Source of the DNA: a virus
Lineage: Duplodnaviria; Heunggongvirae; Uroviricota; Caudoviricetes; Schitoviridae
Reading direction: 5' to 3' (one strand)
Virus record (IMG/VR): IMGVR_UViG_2595698411_000001
Coordinates: 37,241-101,240 of that record
Length of the DNA stretch: 64,000 bases
Part shown: in pieces, positions 2,728 to 31,504 of the stretch
How positions within the stretch are numbered: the first letter of the stretch is position 1
Layout: each line of letters opens with the position of its first letter
The notes under the pieces: model-generated
What the model was told of the DNA's origin: nothing
The model's input: the letters and a program-made list of their open reading frames with translations, nothing else
Databases searched by the model: none
Translations under genes and position numbers: made by a program

Positions 2728-2952
2728 ATGAAAGTTTTAGTAACACTGCTATCCCTAGCTCTGTTAGCGGCTTGCACTCCTCGTACTGGCCTGAATAAAG
2801 CCAAAGGAGAGTACCTGTGCCGTAACAACGGAGGAATATATTTCTTTTACAGCTTTAGCGAATACCCGGTTGTGTGTAACGACGGTACAGCATTTACCAT
2901 CAAGCAGCTAGAAACCATCATTATTAAAGATCCAGAGTATTTACCGGAGTAA
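2728..2952 (+). CDS. putative lipoprotein
   Basis: N-terminus MKVLVTLLSLALLAAC carries a lipobox LAAC; 74 aa. Confidence 0.5.
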   Translation: MKVLVTLLSLALLAACTPRTGLNKAKGEYLCRNNGGIYFFYSFSEYPVVCNDGTAFTIKQLETIIIKDPEYLPE

Positions 2953-2956
2953 AGCA

Positions 2957-3208
2957 ATGCTTAATTACGAAGCGAAAGAACTGATAGGCCAAACCGTTTA
3001 CCTTATCTCAGTTCAGTACATGGAAAACTACGGCAGTAGGTGGAAGTTCAAGCTGGGGGACACTCACGTTATCCCTGCAAGCGAAAAAACCCCAGAGACA
3101 ATGATAGCAGCCGTTGACTCTCTGGACTTGATTAACAACTCACAAGCGAGAGAAGTAATAATTTCAGTACAGTTTAAAGTACTGACAGCCGAAGACTGCG
3201 AATATTAA
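2957..3208 (+). CDS. hypothetical protein
   Basis: 83-aa ORF. Confidence 0.45.
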   Translation: MLNYEAKELIGQTVYLISVQYMENYGSRWKFKLGDTHVIPASEKTPETMIAAVDSLDLINNSQAREVIISVQFKVLTAEDCEY

Positions 3209-3231
3209 TAACGTTTTAAGCGGAGGTCACC

Positions 3232-3975
3232 ATGCGTGATGCAATACTTGAAGGTAACTTGCCTTTTCCAGGTACAGCCTTGTTCTCACTATACCCTCAA
3301 CAGAAAGATGACATAGAGCGCTTTTGGAAAGCAATCTGGCTCAACTTTCTGAATGACAGTGATACTAACGGTGTCTATTGGTACTCAGAACTAGGCTCTA
3401 AGCTTTACAACGAAGTAGTACGGCGCTTATCGCACCACGGCTGGGTAACTAGTCATGCGATTACAGCACGACGTTGGGCATGCGTTGAGCTGAATGAAGA
3501 AAAGCTCTTTGAGTTCATAACTCCTGACGAACTGTTGGATGTTAAGACAGAAAACAAGTACCAGAAGTATGTGCTTGAACTCAGAGAAGCAACAGCTTCA
3601 ACCCTTGTAAGACAGAACGGCGAAACTAAGCGCACAGGCCTTGTTAGAAAAGGCTTTCGTGACTCAGGCAATACTCAGTTTGGGTACGACATGGACGCAC
3701 TTCATCAATATGAGGAAGCAGTTAAGCTGAACCTAACTAAATCAATGGACAAGATCCGACAGGACTATCCAGAGATGAAGACAACTAGCGACTCTTATGA
3801 CAACGTCAGTGTAGGTATTTATGACTGGCACTACGAAAATAAGAACGAAGTGTTTACGACAGGCAATAACATCAATGATAGCCGAGGCAGGGCTATCAGT
3901 AGTTGCCTAAAGAAAGTGGCCAACCCTATTAGCAGTAAAGATTTCAGGGCAGCCCTAGTAATAACTTACGATTAA
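3232..3975 (+). CDS. T7-like phage RNA polymerase (N4 RNAPII-type), N-terminal piece carrying motif T (DxxGR)
   Basis: ...YDWHYENKNEVFTTGNNINDSRGRAISS aligns to T7 RNAP FPYNMDWRGRVYAVS (DxxGR). The ORF ends 26 aa after the motif. The next RNAP piece continues the T7 alignment with no residues missing. Confidence 0.6.
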   Translation: MRDAILEGNLPFPGTALFSLYPQQKDDIERFWKAIWLNFLNDSDTNGVYWYSELGSKLYNEVVRRLSHHGWVTSHAITARRWACVELNEEKLFEFITPDELLDVKTENKYQKYVLELREATASTLVRQNGETKRTGLVRKGFRDSGNTQFGYDMDALHQYEEAVKLNLTKSMDKIRQDYPEMKTTSDSYDNVSVGIYDWHYENKNEVFTTGNNINDSRGRAISSCLKKVANPISSKDFRAALVITYD

Positions 3976-4301: not shown

Positions 4302-5132
4302 ATGCTAGCAGAATGTAACGCAGTATTCTTATTCATCGCAGAACTAACAGGCAGCTTTCAGCCAGGTTCAGGTACAGAACAAGACAAGATTGAGTGCGGT
4401 AAGCAAGACTACATCAGAAACTTCCAGCTAGATCTCAACCTTCATGACGAAGACGACAGAAAAGATATGCACGAAAATGTGTGGCTATCAAGACTGTACC
4501 GAGAACTAGACACTTATTTCAACGTGCCTTCAGACAAAACCGCTAGAGCCTTGGCAGTAGACCCTGAGAGCAATCGCTACAGGTACTCAACGTTCCAGTG
4601 GCAAGTACCTATTGAACTAGATGCAAGTGCATCGATGCTTCAGTACGAAGGCTTACTTACTGGCGACAAACGACTGTTAGAAATGACAAACGTTATCGGT
4701 GACACCCTACAAGACCCTTGGAAACTAGAGGGAATGTCACGCCAAATGCTAAAGAAAGCGGCAACTCCAATGCTATACGGTTCTAGCCAAGCATGTCATG
4801 AGTTGTGGCAAGATAACAATATCCCTTATACGACTGATGACATAGCTTTGTACAATAAAGAAATGGCAGAAGGGCCCTTTGGTGTAGCAAACTTACTTAA
4901 AGAGTTCATCATCAATAACGCGGCGCCTAAGTCAGAAATGGAAGTTCATATCTGGGGAGAGAAGTTCAAGATATCGTGTAACCGTTTCCGTAACGTAGGT
5001 GAACAGACTAAAGCGTACAAGATATGGGATACGTTGGATGAGCGTTACAACATCATCCTACATACTGACACTAAGCGTGTGCCTGACCTAGAGCAGTTCA
5101 AACGGTACTTTATGACGTTACTCATTTTCTGA
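4302..5132 (+). CDS. T7-like RNA polymerase II catalytic piece (motifs A and B); 5' exon or N-terminal segment
   Basis: Motif A QVPIELDASASMLQYEGLL matches T7 PLAFDGSCSGIQHFSAML. Motif B RQMLKKAATPMLYGSS is an exact R-x3-K-x7-YG. The ORF reads into the intervening element and stops at 5133. Confidence 0.75.
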   Translation: MLAECNAVFLFIAELTGSFQPGSGTEQDKIECGKQDYIRNFQLDLNLHDEDDRKDMHENVWLSRLYRELDTYFNVPSDKTARALAVDPESNRYRYSTFQWQVPIELDASASMLQYEGLLTGDKRLLEMTNVIGDTLQDPWKLEGMSRQMLKKAATPMLYGSSQACHELWQDNNIPYTTDDIALYNKEMAEGPFGVANLLKEFIINNAAPKSEMEVHIWGEKFKISCNRFRNVGEQTKAYKIWDTLDERYNIILHTDTKRVPDLEQFKRYFMTLLIF

Positions 5133-6285
5133 TTGTGGGTGAGTATAAACATGGTGAATTCGGTGGACGCTAAGGGAGAAATCCTATGCCAATACCGAGC
5201 CAAGCTTAGCTAGGAATAGCTTTGAAGGTGTAGAGACTAGTACGAGAGGCCAGAACGGTCAATAATGTACGTAGGATACTCAAGTGAGATCCGAAGCGCC
5301 ATGCCCTACTTAGGTAGGTGAAGATATAGTCCCATACTCCGTGGAAATGCGGAGACTAGTGTTGATTATCTACATAGTAGAGTCTATAATATGTATTGTT
5401 ATGTATAATAAGGATTCTAATATGAATAGATATTACGTGTACTGGTATAGGCTGATTGAGTTTAATAATCCACATTGTGAAGGATACATAGGTATAACAA
5501 ACAATATGGAGCGTAGACATAAAGAACATTGTAGAAGTAAAGGTACTCACTTTGCTAATGCAATAAGTAAGTATGGGTTAGACAAAATCAGTTATGAGGT
5601 ACTGCATGAAACTGACAGCAGACAGGAAGCTTTAGACCTAGAAGCTTATTACCGTCCAGACGTAGGATTAGGATGGAATACTGCAAAAGGCGGTGAAGAT
5701 ACCTTAGCGTCAGTAAAATGTAGGAAAGTAAAGCTATACCATAAAGACAATCCTGAAAAACTTAGATGTTTTGATTCTATAGATCAAGCTTCTAAAGAAC
5801 TAGGGATTACCGCTTCAAGAATAGCTCAAGCATTATGCCGTAATACTAAGTATTATGGGTTTGATGGGTGGGCTGTATTGATAGATGAGAGTACAGAAAG
5901 AGGTAAGACTCTAAGTATTCAGGAAGTAATATCTATCAGAGTAAGTGGCGCTAAACGTAATAAACCAAGCCATTTTAAAGGTATGACTAATCGCTGGTCC
6001 GAAGAGGATAAAAAGCGAATTAGTGATCAACATAGAGGTAAGGTTATCTCAGATGAGCAAAAAGAAGTAGTAAGAAACAAGAATAGAGCTGCCCATAGTT
6101 CTTGTAAATCTATAACTTTAGTTCATCAGGATAATCCTGAAGTTGAGCATACTTACCATAGCATAGCAGAAGCCTCTAGGGAATTAAGTATACCTTTGAG
6201 TAGACTTAAGTCTAAAGCACAGAGAAAGCTGAATGTGTATGGTAAAGATGGCTGGAAGATAATTAAACTAGGTGCAGAGTAACGT
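5133..6285 (+). mobile_element. intervening element in the RNAPII gene: putative group I intron carrying a GIY-YIG homing endonuclease ORF
   Basis: It separates the motif-B piece from the motif-C piece of one T7-like RNAP. About 290 nt of relatively GC-rich, non-coding-looking sequence (5133-5421) precedes the homing-endonuclease ORF. That ORF is AT-rich with atypical codon usage. The downstream RNAP piece has no ATG. Confidence 0.45.
5422..6282 (+). CDS. GIY-YIG homing endonuclease with NUMOD-like repeats
   Basis: MNRYYVYWYRLIEFNNPHCEGYIGITNNMERRHKEH is a GIY-x10-YIG...R..H..E motif. Repeated Lys/Arg-rich modules follow. An AAGGAT ribosome-binding site precedes ATG 5422. An upstream in-frame ATG at 5341 is also possible. 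Confidence 0.75.
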   Translation: MNRYYVYWYRLIEFNNPHCEGYIGITNNMERRHKEHCRSKGTHFANAISKYGLDKISYEVLHETDSRQEALDLEAYYRPDVGLGWNTAKGGEDTLASVKCRKVKLYHKDNPEKLRCFDSIDQASKELGITASRIAQALCRNTKYYGFDGWAVLIDESTERGKTLSIQEVISIRVSGAKRNKPSHFKGMTNRWSEEDKKRISDQHRGKVISDEQKEVVRNKNRAAHSSCKSITLVHQDNPEVEHTYHSIAEASRELSIPLSRLKSKAQRKLNVYGKDGWKIIKLGAE

Positions 6286-6595
6286 CTGCATTAAGGTAAA
6301 GCACAACCTAGATAGCCAAGTAGCAGATACTGTAATCGGCAAAGTGTACAACAAGTACGGTTGGGGTATCCCTATCCATGATGCGTTTATCATTAGCCCT
6401 GCAGCAGCAGCTGACGCTCGTAAGTGGTATGCAGAAGAATTGACCAAGATCTACGAAGATCGACAGCTAATTCTAAACAACTACTTCAAGAGTATCGGTA
6501 TCACTAGCGCAGCTCAGCAACAGTGGAAAGATCTAGTAAGCAAGATCCACCCGCTTGAAGGCGACATCAACGTAAACCACATGGCACTTAAGTAA
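6272..6595 (+). CDS. T7-like RNA polymerase II C-terminal piece (motif C, catalytic HD); 3' exon or separate subunit
   Basis: KVYNKYGWGIPIHDAFIISP aligns to T7 HEKYGIESFALIHDSFGT (motif C). About 70 aa follow to the C-terminus, as in T7. The listed start is GTG and there is no in-frame ATG, so the true 5' boundary is probably just after the homing-endonuclease stop (6283-6290). Confidence 0.7.
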   Translation: MQSNVCIKVKHNLDSQVADTVIGKVYNKYGWGIPIHDAFIISPAAAADARKWYAEELTKIYEDRQLILNNYFKSIGITSAAQQQWKDLVSKIHPLEGDINVNHMALK

Positions 6596-6652
6596 CAGTA
6601 ATAGGGCAGGCGAAAGCTTGCCCAATTTTTTGACGAGGATAAAACTACGGCA

Positions 6653-28991: not shown

Positions 28992-29249
28992 ATGAAAAAA
29001 CGACTAGCGCTTGCAACAGCTGCATTGCTGTTTGCATCAACCGCTCTTGCGACCGAAAAACCGGTACGGCACTATGAAGTAGATGCTTGGGGTTTTGACC
29101 CTGACATTTACGAATTTACCCCAATCGGCCATAACCACATGACTTGCCTGATTTTAGTATCAGGCGGTGACACTTCAGCAGGCATTACGTGCTTCCCTAA
29201 AGACCGTGTACCTAAAGTCAAAGTTGAAGAGGTAAAAAATGAAAGCTGA
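28992..29249 (+). CDS. secreted small protein
   Basis: MKKRLALATAALLFASTALA signal peptide. Confidence 0.5.
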   Translation: MKKRLALATAALLFASTALATEKPVRHYEVDAWGFDPDIYEFTPIGHNHMTCLILVSGGDTSAGITCFPKDRVPKVKVEEVKNES

Positions 29250-29775
29250 ACTAGTGCTGCACAGCAATGACGACCTCCTTTGTGTAAACGCTGCTCGTGT
29301 TTCAATGGACAAAGAGTCAAAACTATTTACTTTCCGTAAAGATAAACCAAAAGGCTCAGATGAAGGTCTGGTACATTATCTAGCGGACCATCGCCATTGG
29401 ACACCTTTCAGCCATGCGCGTTTTACAATCGAAGCTAACGACGTATTTATTAACTTACTGAACGTAAACCCAGAAGATATCGCTTCTGCAGTGTGGAGAA
29501 CTGATCCTCTAAAAGGTAGTTTTAAATTCCGTACATCGTTGTTTGGTTGGGCAAACCTGATTAAAAAAGGTTTTGTGTTCGATCATTACGTTGGTGCAGT
29601 AGTAAATGTACTTAAACAGCATGTACCGCACTCTCTTAAAGCACTACTGCCAGAGATCGGTGACAACGTTAAATCGCGGTTCCCAGTATGGGAAACTGAA
29701 GACGAAACAGATCCTGCGTTTATTGACGTAACAATGCGCGAAACTATTCCTATTTTTATCGCACGTCAACGGTAA
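29239..29775 (+). CDS. thyX: flavin-dependent thymidylate synthase ThyX, N-terminal part (5' exon) with an in-frame ~100-aa insertion
   Basis: VNAARVSMDK...DEGLVHYLADHRHWTPFSHARFTIEA aligns to ThyX ...AARVS...HRVGNIFRHSSTLEHLYYNFEI and T. maritima HETPFEHIVFTFHV. The C-terminal IPIFIARQR aligns to T. maritima APIFVARQW. The ORF stops where the RHR motif should follow. Confidence 0.65.
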   Translation: MKAELVLHSNDDLLCVNAARVSMDKESKLFTFRKDKPKGSDEGLVHYLADHRHWTPFSHARFTIEANDVFINLLNVNPEDIASAVWRTDPLKGSFKFRTSLFGWANLIKKGFVFDHYVGAVVNVLKQHVPHSLKALLPEIGDNVKSRFPVWETEDETDPAFIDVTMRETIPIFIARQR

Positions 29776-29841
29776 ACTACTGCTATTTGTCGTTAGCTAT
29801 GCTATGCTCATATATCCAGCAACAAACAAAGAAAAAACAGT

Positions 29842-30507
29842 ATGTTGAAAGATAGAGCCGGCGATCAAGTTACCCGTGTATGTGATGACTGTGGTGATGA
29901 AAAACGAGTCAGTTATTGGAACGTCTACAAGAAAGATGCCCACCGTTGTTATCGGTGCAATAACAAACTGACCAACTTGGGAAAAACGCCCTGGAATAAA
30001 GGGCACAAGCAACAACCCAAGAATGTTGGAAATATCTATACCCACTCAGACGGCTACCCGATGGTGTGGGTAGGTAAGACCAACACAAACCATGGATATA
30101 TGCCTGTTCACAGATTGGTAATGAGCGACCTTAATGGACGCTTGGTTACCAAAGAAGAAAAGGTACATCACGTAAACGGAGACAAAGAGGATTTCAGGCC
30201 TGTAAACCTGTTCCTCTGTAACAATATGTCCCACCACCGAAAAGTACATGCACAGCTTGAAACGCTGTCTATGTCTTTAGTGAAAATGGGGCTTATTGAG
30301 TTTGATCACGCTAAAGGCGAGTACAGCTTAAGCCGCCCTATGGAGAAATTCATAGAGGAAAAACTGGGTGAATTGCTGGAAACCCCTAACGAGAAAGACG
30401 AGGGCAATCAGCAGCCAAGCTCTGCAGAACTTGCAGAGAAGGTTCAACGACTATTCCGTGAGGAAGTACACCAGAAGTCTGGTGGAAGCGCCCAGCCCCT
30501 GCCGTAA
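29842..30507 (+). CDS. HNH homing endonuclease
   Basis: VHHVNGDKEDFRPVNLFLCNNMSHHRKVH is an HNH motif. The N-terminus has Zn-finger-like CDDCGD...CYRCNNK. Confidence 0.7.
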   Translation: MLKDRAGDQVTRVCDDCGDEKRVSYWNVYKKDAHRCYRCNNKLTNLGKTPWNKGHKQQPKNVGNIYTHSDGYPMVWVGKTNTNHGYMPVHRLVMSDLNGRLVTKEEKVHHVNGDKEDFRPVNLFLCNNMSHHRKVHAQLETLSMSLVKMGLIEFDHAKGEYSLSRPMEKFIEEKLGELLETPNEKDEGNQQPSSAELAEKVQRLFREEVHQKSGGSAQPLP

Positions 30508-30571
30508 GTAGGGTGATGATATAGTCTCTTCTGCATGGAAACATGCAGCAGTTCATAGTTTAGGAGACTGG

Positions 30572-31039
30572 ATGTGGTACAAAATCTACAGACACACAAG
30601 TCCTAGTGGTAAATCATATATAGGGATTACTTCTGAGGATACATATACAAGGTTCAGGAAACACTTACGTAAGGCTAGATTTGGATCTACAACCAATTTC
30701 CATAAAGCAATACGTAAGTACGGTGAAGATTGCTGGCAGTCAGAAATACTGGACGCCTTCTATACTGAGGATAAGAAAGAAGCATACGAAAAAGAGCAAT
30801 CTTGGATTGATTCTGAACAACCTGAGTATAATATGGATTGTGGTTTTGGGTGGAATATTACAGACAGGCGTGGTGACAAGAACCCGATGTATGGGAAATT
30901 GTCAGGAAACGCACACGGGGTCAGCATCAAAGGTGAAATTTTCTTATCCCTCACCTTAGCTGCTGAGCACTTTTCCGTGAATCGAGGAACAATCAGCAGG
31001 TGGATTAAGTCCAGAGAAGACTGTTTTAAACTAAACTAA
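30572..31039 (+). CDS. GIY-YIG homing endonuclease
   Basis: MWYKIYRHTSPSGKSYIGITSEDTYTRFRKHLRKAR is a GIY-YIG motif. AGGAGA ribosome-binding site upstream. Confidence 0.7.
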   Translation: MWYKIYRHTSPSGKSYIGITSEDTYTRFRKHLRKARFGSTTNFHKAIRKYGEDCWQSEILDAFYTEDKKEAYEKEQSWIDSEQPEYNMDCGFGWNITDRRGDKNPMYGKLSGNAHGVSIKGEIFLSLTLAAEHFSVNRGTISRWIKSREDCFKLN

Positions 31040-31504
31040 GTGAACGGGCGGGGAATAACGTACCCCGTCGAAGGTAAAGTTAAACACATGATTGGTACCA
31101 CCTACAATGAGGTGTCACGCAGATACGTAGATGATACACCTGAGTTCTACCATATTGACGAGTGGCGCAGTCGTCCTGACGGTTCGATCAAACAAGGTAG
31201 TGGCGGTATTCACCCTGAAAGCGCAGCAATGTCTCTGTTTGCTAGAGGCCGTGTCACAGCAATGGCTGAAGACTACGATGAAAACATTGAAGCTGGTTTT
31301 GCGCCAGAACAAGTACGCAGTTTGTTGCCACAGAACATGCTCACTAGTTACTACGTCACTGCGTCATTAAACGCGTGGAAACGTGCTTATGACCAGCGTA
31401 TCGACGGCCATGCCCAAAAAGAAATTAACGACCTGGCGCTACAGTGGGTAACAATACTAAACGACTGCCCACACGCCCAAATCTGGAAAGAAATGTTTAA
31501 GTAA
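31040..31504 (+). CDS. thyX: ThyX C-terminal part (3' exon)
   Basis: ...KHMIGTTYNEVSRRY aligns to ThyX RHRIASYNELSGRY. ARSLLPQNMLTSYYVTASLNAWKRAYDQRIDGHAQKEINDLA aligns to the conserved ThyX C-terminal region A.P..Y.T...Y..N.R.L.NF..LR....AQ.EI. Listed GTG start with no ATG. Confidence 0.65.
   Translation: MNGRGITYPVEGKVKHMIGTTYNEVSRRYVDDTPEFYHIDEWRSRPDGSIKQGSGGIHPESAAMSLFARGRVTAMAEDYDENIEAGFAPEQVRSLLPQNMLTSYYVTASLNAWKRAYDQRIDGHAQKEINDLALQWVTILNDCPHAQIWKEMFK

Follow-up and report, generated by a model that had tools for sequence, protein, structure and literature searches.

The DNA analyzed here (the window) is a stretch of 64,000 nucleotides (nt) of IMG/VR virus record IMGVR_UViG_2595698411_000001 from a member of the Schitoviridae; it is 100% identical to Alteromonas phage vB_AmaP_AD45-P1 (NC_021532/KF005317), and a position in that record minus 37,240 gives the window position used throughout. 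Between window positions 4302 and 6595, RefSeq calls three separate genes, one for a hypothetical protein (4302-5132), one for a GIY-YIG nuclease (5506-6282) and one for a second hypothetical protein (6272-6595), and annotates no intron. The 2013 genome paper on the AD45 phages reported that genes similar to N4 RNA polymerase II were absent, described a split virion polymerase and classed the GIY-YIG open reading frame (ORF) as a free-standing homing endonuclease; the term 'intron' is absent from its text. Here we show that these three 'hypothetical' or 'free-standing' genes of the reference genome are one intron-containing gene. It encodes the large, catalytic subunit (RNAP2) of an N4-type RNA polymerase II (RNAPII), and the insert at positions 5127-6301, judged by its sequence, is very probably a mobile self-splicing group I intron of the IA type that carries a homing endonuclease gene. 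In searches of the literature, we found no description of group I introns in RNAP2 genes of the N4 type. The locus has the following parts:

4302..5126, + strand: exon 1 of RNAP2, residues 1-275, with motifs A and B; 3' end ACG UUA CUC AUU
5127..6301, + strand: predicted group I intron, IA-like, 1,175 nt; based on Rfam model RF00028, the match of the junction and covariation
5422..6282, + strand: homing endonuclease gene, 286 amino acids (aa), with GIY-YIG and NUMOD1; Shine-Dalgarno sequence AAGGA at 5410-5414
6302..6595, + strand: exon 2 of RNAP2, residues 276-372; first codon CAC (His276), motif C with H301-D302, stop codon at 6593-6595

An RNAP2 gene in two exons

The ORFs 4302-5132 and 6272-6595 each encode one half of a single RNAP2 of the N4 gp16 type. 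The upstream ORF contains motif A (ELDASAS) and motif B (KKAATPMLYGSS) of RNA polymerases (RNAPs), and the downstream ORF contains motif C (IPIHDAF) and has its first methionine only at ...NHMALK; a first-pass annotation made from the sequence alone had distributed the motifs over the two ORFs in this way and described the second as free of methionine up to its final residues, and all of these features are present. The RNA polymerase profile phrog_2051 (401 positions) matches the flanking ORFs in order, over positions 71-186 and then 335-375, and the spliced protein matches the RNA polymerase families of PHROG better than either piece does (phrog_2051, 2.2e-9; phrog_414, 1.6e-7). A profile built from 42 family members matched N4 RNAP2 in the Protein Data Bank (PDB; 6dt7_B) at E = 1.9e-6 through the stretches of motifs A and C, and hhalign aligned N4 gp16 with the RNAP2 family at 93% probability. 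The spliced 372-aa protein was modeled by AlphaFold2 with a mean pLDDT of 93.9 and a pTM of 0.88, with a single helix (residues 269-294) running through the junction. The top solved match of this model in Foldseek is also 6dt7_B, the N4 RNAPII (E = 2.7e-9), followed by the human and yeast mitochondrial RNA polymerases (POLRMT) and T7 RNAP. Both the profile search and the fold search therefore lead to the identity that the first-pass annotation had proposed, a catalytic subunit of an N4-type RNAPII. Pfam, including RNA_pol, gave zero matches for exon 1, exon 2 or the spliced protein; the identification took the PHROG, PDB profile and fold searches.

When 5.8 billion proteins were searched with the joined 372-aa protein, 470 relatives were recovered, the best 120 of which are mostly 366-380 aa long, with 100% query coverage. 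The AD45 protein is 72-75% identical to its uninterrupted relatives, and the residues that are invariant over 42 homologs, D107, K151, Y159, H276, H301 and D302 among them, are all kept in the AD45 exons. Among cultured phages, a tblastn search with the joined protein found AD45 isolates only. T7 RNAP aligns weakly in hhalign (E = 0.018), with LIHNLDSQ opposite T7 782-FVHSQDGS and IHDAF opposite IHDSF; because of the first of these pairings, the alignment suggests that the intron site directly precedes the codon equivalent to T7 His784, 26 codons 5' of the motif C aspartate. Contrary to the 2013 genome paper, AD45 phages encode an N4-type RNAPII catalytic subunit.

The intron, its splice sites and its homologs at the same site

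RF00028 matches positions 5100-5354 (+) along the full length of the model (1-253); the score of 55.7 bits exceeds the curated cut-off of 50, and E is 1.9e-11 when the whole window is searched. The first-pass annotation had named this model as a check on 5100-6300, and the match is above the cut-off and includes the P3-P7 core. The alignment displays the conserved J3/4, P4-P6, P7 (GACUA/UAGUC), J8/7 (GAAGAUAUAGUCC) and, as P9, a hairpin whose loop is GAAA. The 55 nt inserted after the P7 GACUA form P7.1 and P7.2, a hallmark of subgroup IA; P2 is absent. The predicted RNA elements, some of which stem from duplex and minimum free energy (MFE) predictions, are:

5119..5145, + strand: P1 hairpin, in which UACUCAUU (5119-5126) pairs with GGUGAGUA (5138-5145); read from the sequence
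5150..5354, + strand: catalytic core, from the cmscan alignment; P3 5150-5156/5297-5303, P4 5160-5165/5193-5198, P5 and P6, P7 5235-5239/5327-5331, P7.1 and P7.2 5240-5292, P8 5305-5309/5314-5318, P9 5337-5354 with its GAAA loop
5356..5371, + strand: 5' strand of P9.1, CUAGU-G-UUGAUUAUCU, directly after P9; duplex/MFE prediction
6257..6271, + strand: 3' strand of P9.1, AGAUAAUUAA-ACUAG, inside the endonuclease coding sequence
6273..6290, + strand: P9.2 hairpin, UGCAGA (6273-6278), loop GUAACG, UCUGCA (6285-6290); read from the sequence
6301, + strand: terminal G (omega G) at the 3' splice site; the sole G that yields an in-frame junction fitting the homologs, and a G in 9 of 9 introns at this site

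The splice sites were derived from the sequence itself because P1 is poorly aligned in the RF00028 match; Rfam's placement of P1, with the conserved U at 5109, has many non-canonical pairs, and the junctions that it implies do not fit the homologs. In the P1 that we read from the sequence, the pair U5126·G5138 closes the helix and marks the 5' splice site. The P1 loop contains a stop codon in the frame of exon 1 (UGA, 5130-5132) and the P10 guide UUGUG (5133-5137), which in AD45-P1 forms 5 base pairs (bp) with CACAA (6302-6306), the first five bases of exon 2. With 5126 joined to 6302, the sequence is ACG UUA CUC AUU^CAC AAC CUA GAU, that is, ...FKRYFMTLLI^HNLDSQVAD... (here and below, a caret marks a junction). 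The predicted spliced mRNA reads ACGUUACUCAUU^CACAACCUAGAU across the junction, with the junction peptide given as FMTLLIHNLDSQ / FMTLLIHNLDSQVADTVIGK, and the corresponding intron-less site would be TTTATGACGTTACTCATTCACAACCTAGATAGC. Aligned metagenomic homologs of 370-376 aa are continuous over this point in 118 of 119 cases, without a gap, as F(K/R)RYF(M/V)TLL(I/V)HNLDSQ, and among the best 120 of the 470 homologs only the AD45 cluster ends at ...LLIF. Given this agreement and the E value of the RF00028 match, chance can hardly account for the arrangement.

Because this junction fits the homologs and other in-frame U/G pairs add or drop residues, we place the intron at 5127-6301, with a length of 1,175 nt and in phase 0, between the codons for Ile275 and His276. 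The alternative in-frame pairs 5118+6297, 5109+6297, 5111+6296 and 5113+6289 were rejected, as each gains or loses residues relative to the 118 homologs. Protein splicing of an intein was ruled out as well, given that the endonuclease ORF is in another frame and that exon 1 runs into a stop codon. With these splice sites, some boundaries in the first-pass annotation have to be moved. It had let the upstream piece run to the end of its ORF (5132); exon 1 stops at 5126, and the final F of ORF 4302-5132, like its stop codon, is encoded by the intron. The motif C that it had found in ORF 6272-6595 stands, and the start of that ORF does not, the residues VQSNVCIKVK being intron-encoded; exon 2 (6302) begins 19 nt after the endonuclease stop codon, not 1-8 nt after it.

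The 3' domain of the intron is interlaced with the endonuclease gene. P9.1 is predicted to be a long-range helix of 15 bp, interrupted by a single bulge and including a single G·U pair, that holds the endonuclease ORF in its loop, and ten bases separate P9.2 from G6301. The 3' 26 nt of the endonuclease gene overlap the P9.1 3' strand and P9.2: the last eight codons encode the P9.1 3' strand and the 5' strand of P9.2, and the P9.2 loop contains the UAA stop codon (6280-6282).

The endonuclease ORF matches the Pfam domains GIY-YIG (PF01541; 31.8 bits, cut-off 22.6) and NUMOD1 (24.2 bits, cut-off 22.8), both above their cut-offs, as expected from the first-pass description of 5422-6282 as a GIY-YIG/NUMOD endonuclease; an I-HmuI_NUMOD-like match in the same ORF (22.3 bits) stays under the cut-off of 27. 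The ORF also matches homing endonuclease families of PHROG. More than 60 full-length homologs, with 44-66% identity, span all 286 residues, and Y7, Y22, G24, R32, H36, E74 and N86, which are invariant in 28 homologs, are all present in AD45. We favor the start at 5422 over the RefSeq start at 5506 because the homologs cover all 286 residues and a Shine-Dalgarno sequence precedes 5422; the RefSeq start removes the N-terminal YVYWY...GYIGIT of the GIY-YIG catalytic domain. A phmmer search of the endonuclease against the PDB found no meaningful match, with the presence of an I-TevI chain among the targets uncertain. The codon usage of the gene, called foreign-looking in the first pass, is indeed deviant (GC3 of 0.26, versus 0.47-0.50 in the exons). 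The ORF-free stretch 5127-5421, which had been called GC-richer, is richer in GC than the endonuclease gene (41.7% versus 36.7%) and poorer than the exons (44-45%).

Two side observations concern this gene. An endonuclease identical to that of AD45 (P0121) is encoded on a 103,598-nt contig that is labeled Pseudorhizobium pelagicum at NCBI; this contig is probably an AD45-type phage genome within a bacterial assembly. The best regional match to a sigma-70-like promoter (TTGATT-17-TATAAT, 10/12; 5362-5390, +) lies in the intron 5' of the endonuclease gene; it was given no weight, since the number of matches in the region equals the shuffled expectation.

Eight more loci, on uncultured metagenomic contigs, hold an intron at the AD45 site (L010-L013 and L017-L020, of which L013 and L017-L020 were added by a metagenome scan), and their endonucleases are homologous to that of AD45 (49-66% identity). 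Together with AD45-P1 they form the set of nine same-site introns to which the counts in this section refer. The order in L010, L011 and L012 is a gene resembling that of the small RNAPII subunit RNAP1, exon 1 to ...LLI, an RF00028 core (76-80 bits), the endonuclease gene and exon 2 from HNLDSQ; in L012 the gene 5' of the core codes for a single 488-aa product. The elements CUCAUU^...G^CAY, the guide GGGUGAG (GGAUGAG in L018) and a P9.2 with a GUAACG loop are common to all nine. The metagenomic introns share with AD45 the identical insertion point, the layout of P1, P9.1 and P9.2 and the position of the endonuclease stop codon in the GUAACG loop, whereas their exon 2 stretch is only 37-67% identical to that of AD45 in tblastn (37-61% for full-length matches). 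Unlike AD45-P1, most of them have a stop codon right at the 5' splice site (AUU^UAA) and UUG or AUG as their 3' end, versus AAG in AD45-P1. With a final AUG or UUG in the frame of exon 2 (L010-L013, L017-L020), translation of unspliced RNA could in principle start at His276, an option that AD45-P1 (AAG) lacks; such ends may reflect only constraints on the bases before the terminal G. More distant relatives of the endonuclease reside in different introns, at the AD45 site in L024 and 5 nt upstream of it in L014 (junctions read by eye).

For the analysis of covariation, the AD45-derived structure was counted on an alignment of the nine introns with their ORFs deleted; the controls were the same structure with the 3' partners slid by 1-3 columns, and 500 shuffles. 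Paired cells amount to 86.6%, versus 28-40% in the slid controls, a measure that is favored by taking the structure from one of the nine sequences, and two-sided changes, the count of which is free of that bias, occur in 44 of the 94 pairs; none of the 500 shuffles reaches the observed values. P3, P4, P5, P6, P7.1, P7.2, P8 and P9 are 89-100% paired with compensatory changes (94-100% for the P7.1 and P7.2 helices), and P7 is invariant. In P1, the exon-intron pairs at positions -7 and -8 are covarying (AU/GC/UA and GC/UA). Three of the six pairs of the P9.2 stem covary around the invariant GUAACG loop, and the outer five pairs of P9.1 are conserved or covarying although one strand of the helix is coding. 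Equivalent long-range P9.1 helices with compensatory changes are predicted in L010, L011, L012, L013 and L019; duplex prediction for each sequence gave 9-13 bp in L011, L012, L013 and L019. RNAalifold, run on nine diverse phage introns, found compensatory changes in 23 of 32 core pairs.

A further pairing was considered and set aside. Exon 1 positions 5115-5123 (ACGUUACUC) are a perfect 9-bp complement of the P9.2 loop region 6278-6286 (GAGUAACGU), a pairing that is dominant in the MFE fold and competes with P1 and P9.2 and could be read as regulatory. We judged it probably due to chance because the exon side differs at three of nine positions in L010-L012, with the loop invariant. Separately, the 42-nt P4-P5 segment 5160-5201 is 97.6% identical to sequences of Enterococcus phages (EFDG1, phiSHEF16 and others); in the records of these phages the core-like stretch is found under a DNA polymerase I gene in one and is unannotated in the rest. 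This part of the group I core is thus strongly conserved between phages that are only very distantly related.

Introns elsewhere in RNAP2 and related systems

The AD45 core has counterparts in intron 1 of Pseudoalteromonas phage pYD6-A (82% identity over 170 nt) and in the intron of Pseudomonas phage ZC08 (74% identity over 212 nt). Both matches fall within split 'RNA polymerase' genes, with RF00028 scores of 74-89 bits, and are unannotated as introns. The RF00028 matches in these and other RNAP2 genes, all with 74-89 bits and unannotated as introns, are:

L003 (pYD6-A), 2924-3171 and 3497-3753: introns 1 and 2
L004 (ZC08), 2957-3222: one match
L005, 4898-5162: one match
L007 (AD45-like), 1802-2083 and 2839-3117: two matches
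L008 (AD45-like), 1291-1523: one match

Intron 1 of pYD6-A resembles the AD45 intron in its host gene, an N4-type RNAP2, and in its P9.2 hairpin; unlike the AD45 intron, it lacks an ORF and is located 9 nt upstream of the AD45 site (SLAA^NVIHSIDG; by reading). Intron 2 of pYD6-A and the ZC08 intron differ from that of AD45 in being inserted in motif C (IHDA^F and VHD^CF, respectively) and in carrying an HNH instead of a GIY-YIG endonuclease. The HNH endonucleases of these two introns and of an AD45-like contig are mutually homologous, with 33-45% identity. Two clusters of the AD45-like family end exactly at ...IPIHDA, and in the one that was looked up (L005) an intron follows; five clusters begin at MLQYEG, just past the motif A ELDASAS, and in the two that were looked up (L007 and L008) introns precede. 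The N-terminal part of the RNAP2 gene of L007 contains two introns. As far as these sequence matches go, mobile group I introns have repeatedly entered RNAP2 of N4-like and AD45-like marine phages: in motif A, at or close to the histidine that corresponds to T7 H784, and in motif C. The first-pass annotation had called splicing in an N4-type RNAPII notable; given the introns of these relatives, in three catalytic regions, it is less exceptional than that. The authors of the paper on ZC08 noted that a homing endonuclease is inserted in RNAP2 and offered a speculation on how the two-subunit enzyme arose; the intron was not identified there.

In its makeup, the AD45 element belongs to a familiar class, mobile introns that carry a homing endonuclease; what is new is the host gene setting, the overlooked RNAPII and the wider, undescribed colonization of RNAP2. 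The T4 nrdD (sunY) intron with I-TevII is a phage group I intron of the IA type with a compact core and a GIY-YIG ORF 3' of P9, and activation of sunY by its 3' domain is said to have been treated by Michel et al. in 1992. As in sunY, the core of the AD45 intron comes first, the 3' splice site is hundreds of nt away and the ORF ends next to the terminal structural elements. The host genes differ, anaerobic ribonucleotide reductase in T4 and RNA polymerase in AD45, and the AD45 endonuclease has NUMOD1 modules, unlike the T4 system. In a phage DNA similarity search with the AD45 intron, no T4 match was detected. A group I intron like that of sunY was one of the alternatives in the first-pass annotation, and it agrees with the junction defined by P1, P10 and the terminal G, which fits the homologs, and with a fold that covaries in nine introns.

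A second group I intron in the window interrupts thyX (approximately 29773-31079, +). It scores 105.7 bits with RF00028 at 30284-30548, above the score of the RNAP2 intron, and the Pfam Thy1 matches (29239-29775 and 31040-31504) lie on either side of it. The intron appears to contain two endonuclease ORFs: an HNH_3 ORF (29842-30507) that lies between P1 and P3 and extends through the core to a stop codon in the P8 loop, and a GIY-YIG ORF with an I-TevI-type DNA-binding domain (30572-31039) 3' of P9. By reading, the junction is CAA CGG U^UU AAA CAC, giving ARQRFKHMIGTTYNEVSRRY, and the 3' end of the intron (a hairpin with a AAUAACGU loop, followed by AAGGUAAAG^) is similar to the 3' end of the intron in RNAP2. 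The record carries no annotation of this intron, and the 2013 paper lists both ORFs as free-standing endonucleases. The thymidylate synthase gene of an N4-like Vibrio phage has been reported to hold a group I intron.

Proposed splicing, the AD45-P4 deletion and alternative explanations

Three further features bear on the expression and fate of the gene:

3232..3975, + strand: candidate small subunit of RNAPII (N4 gp15/RNAP1-like), 247 aa; based on synteny and a C-terminal motif
6604..6631, + strand: terminator-like intrinsic hairpin and T-run, directly 3' of the RNAP2 stop codon
6105..6304, + strand: segment of exactly 200 nt that is absent from AD45-P4 (KF005319, L002); pairwise alignment with an unambiguous gap

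The ORF 3232-3975 lies directly 5' of RNAP2, here and in relatives. Its C-terminus contains the invariant D216-x-R218-G219-R220 (DSRGR), aligned to DKRGRTYS of N4 gp15, at the position of the T/DxxGR motif of T7-like polymerases; it resembles DWRGRVYA of T7. As tests of RNAP1 identity, phmmer, the PDB profile, hhalign, AlphaFold (pLDDT 69.5) and Foldseek were all non-significant, and the N-terminal part of the low-confidence model shows a weak likeness to winged-helix regulators. The product of this ORF is probably the RNAP1 small subunit, a candidate identity.

We propose that a single pre-mRNA would cover RNAP2 from 4302 through the terminator-like hairpin (6604-6631). In this RNA, P1 would form between the internal guide and the 3' end of exon 1, with U5126·G5138 at the cleavage site, and the core P3-P9 would fold once transcribed; ribosomes translating exon 1 would halt at the UGA (5130-5132) in the P1 loop. 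The 3' splice site would emerge about 950 nt later, when P9.1 would bring the 3' domain back over about 900 nt to the core, P9.2 would form, G6301 would dock and P10 would align exon 2. Attack of GTP at U5126, and then of the 3'-OH of exon 1 after G6301, would ligate 5126 to 6302 and produce the mRNA for the 372-aa subunit. The endonuclease would be translated from its own AAGGA-N7-AUG (5410-5424) and would presumably cut intron-less alleles in co-infecting relatives, into which repair would copy the intron. Such homing would explain the sporadic distribution of the intron, and this distribution fits a mobile element, as does the deviant composition of the endonuclease gene. Because the final endonuclease codons form P9.1 and P9.2, translating them would unfold the 3' domain, and endonuclease translation and splicing are therefore probably mutually exclusive in any one RNA molecule.

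The intron core is identical in all four AD45 isolates. AD45-P4 is otherwise identical over the region save one G-to-A change; its 200-nt deletion takes the C-terminus of the endonuclease, the P9.1 3' strand, P9.2, G6301 and the CAC codon of His276. The AD45-P4 genome was sequenced at 55-111x coverage and assembled concordantly by two assemblers, with PCR checks at loci other than 6105-6304. At the new joint, ...UCUUG^AACCUAGAU, the stop codon of the truncated endonuclease ORF overlaps, as TTGA, the start of a TTG-initiated ORF with the sequence NLDSQ..., which is annotated in this way in GenBank. This TTG could start a 97-aa C-fragment that would be coupled to the truncated endonuclease ORF through the TTGA. 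Alternatively, the G at the joint could serve as a cryptic terminal G in frame, and splicing there would yield ...LLI^NLDSQ..., a product that lacks His276; in relatives, UUG^ is the intron end at the natural site. As to the choice between splicing and translational coupling in the first-pass annotation, splicing is supported and coupling is unneeded for AD45-P1, yet the AD45-P4 deletion creates just such an overlap.

AD45-P4 also provides one of several points that weigh against a self-splicing intron on which RNAP2 depends. The phage is viable without the 3' splice site and has a normal burst size, its growth curve and burst size resembling those of AD45-P3; the normal splice is therefore not strictly needed for plaque formation or growth on the laboratory host, and a review states that imperfect intron deletions at active-site codons are expected to be lethal. 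No substitute for P9.1 or P10 was found in AD45-P4 (-7.2 versus -14.9 and -2.8 versus -6.6 kcal/mol, respectively). In addition, the RF00028 score is barely above the cut-off, P1 of the model is misaligned and P2 is missing, and P10, which shows one change from CAC/GUG to CAU/AUG, is weak in the relatives, with 2-5 bp. Finally, splicing and endonuclease activity are both inferred from the sequence.

If RNAP2 were a gene in pieces without RNA splicing, a 276-aa N-fragment ending ...LLIF, a separate C-fragment and the small subunit would make up a three-piece polymerase. Aeromonas phage Aeh1 provides the precedent: its nrdA is reportedly split by the mobE endonuclease gene, without an intron and with two polypeptides that reassemble (Friedrich et al. 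2007, as cited in the paper on ZC08). In Aeh1 as in AD45, the gene of an essential phage enzyme is broken at a conserved site by a homing endonuclease gene; AD45-P1, unlike Aeh1, has a complete ribozyme, and only the deletion variant AD45-P4 might act in the manner of Aeh1. GenBank and RefSeq list separate ORFs, AD45-P4 lives without the 3' splice site and has the TTGA overlap, the introns of several relatives end in AUG or UUG in frame with exon 2, and N4 RNAPII is, according to the cited papers, already a heterodimer derived from a T7-like single chain; all of this is compatible with translation in pieces. In AD45-P1, however, the sole in-frame start 5' of His276 is the GTG at 6272, which lies at the base of P9.2, has as its possible ribosome-binding site only a weak AGG overlapping the start codon, and would put ten residues from the intron in front of exon 2. 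The intact core of the ribozyme and exon/guide covariation in P1 are hard to explain without selection for splicing, and the exact in-frame junction would be a coincidence. We consider a polymerase translated in pieces in AD45-P1 very unlikely.

Decay or dispensability of the interrupted RNAP2 in AD45 phages, with splicing of the intron no longer needed, would account for the loss of an invariant His codon and the 3' splice site in AD45-P4 without an obvious growth defect; it would also agree with the 2013 paper, which detected no RNAPII and reported a split virion polymerase. Against this, both exons are intact and in frame, every family-invariant residue is kept, identity to uninterrupted relatives is 72-75%, the core is identical in four isolates and the model of the spliced protein is very confident, which makes decay highly improbable. 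The view of the original annotation and of the 2013 paper, that the insert is a free-standing GIY-YIG gene between two unrelated small genes, is refuted to near certainty: the flanking ORFs match one polymerase profile in order, a group I ribozyme lies 5' of the endonuclease, and uninterrupted homologs exist. A mobile self-splicing intron thus remains by far the best explanation of the insert in AD45-P1. For AD45-P4, it is conceivable, though we think it unlikely, that AD45-P3 and AD45-P4 are a natural near-isogenic pair showing polymerase gene fission by intron decay, with the catalytic subunit of RNAPII in AD45-P4 made as 276 aa plus 97 aa and forming, with the small subunit, a three-piece T7-like polymerase. 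If true, AD45-P4 would be a living example of the proposed route from a single chain to the two-subunit RNAPII of N4, that is, insertion of an endonuclease or intron followed by loss of splicing.

Gene callers split intron-bearing RNAP2 genes, and surveys of core genes among Schitoviridae-like phages will therefore under-count RNAP2. The presence of RNAP2 introns in three catalytic regions, with GIY-YIG or HNH endonucleases, fits the idea of homing to active-site codons. AD45-P4, in turn, is relevant to the tolerance of a T7-like polymerase for a break in its chain or for losing His276, and to the origin of the heterodimeric N4 enzyme.

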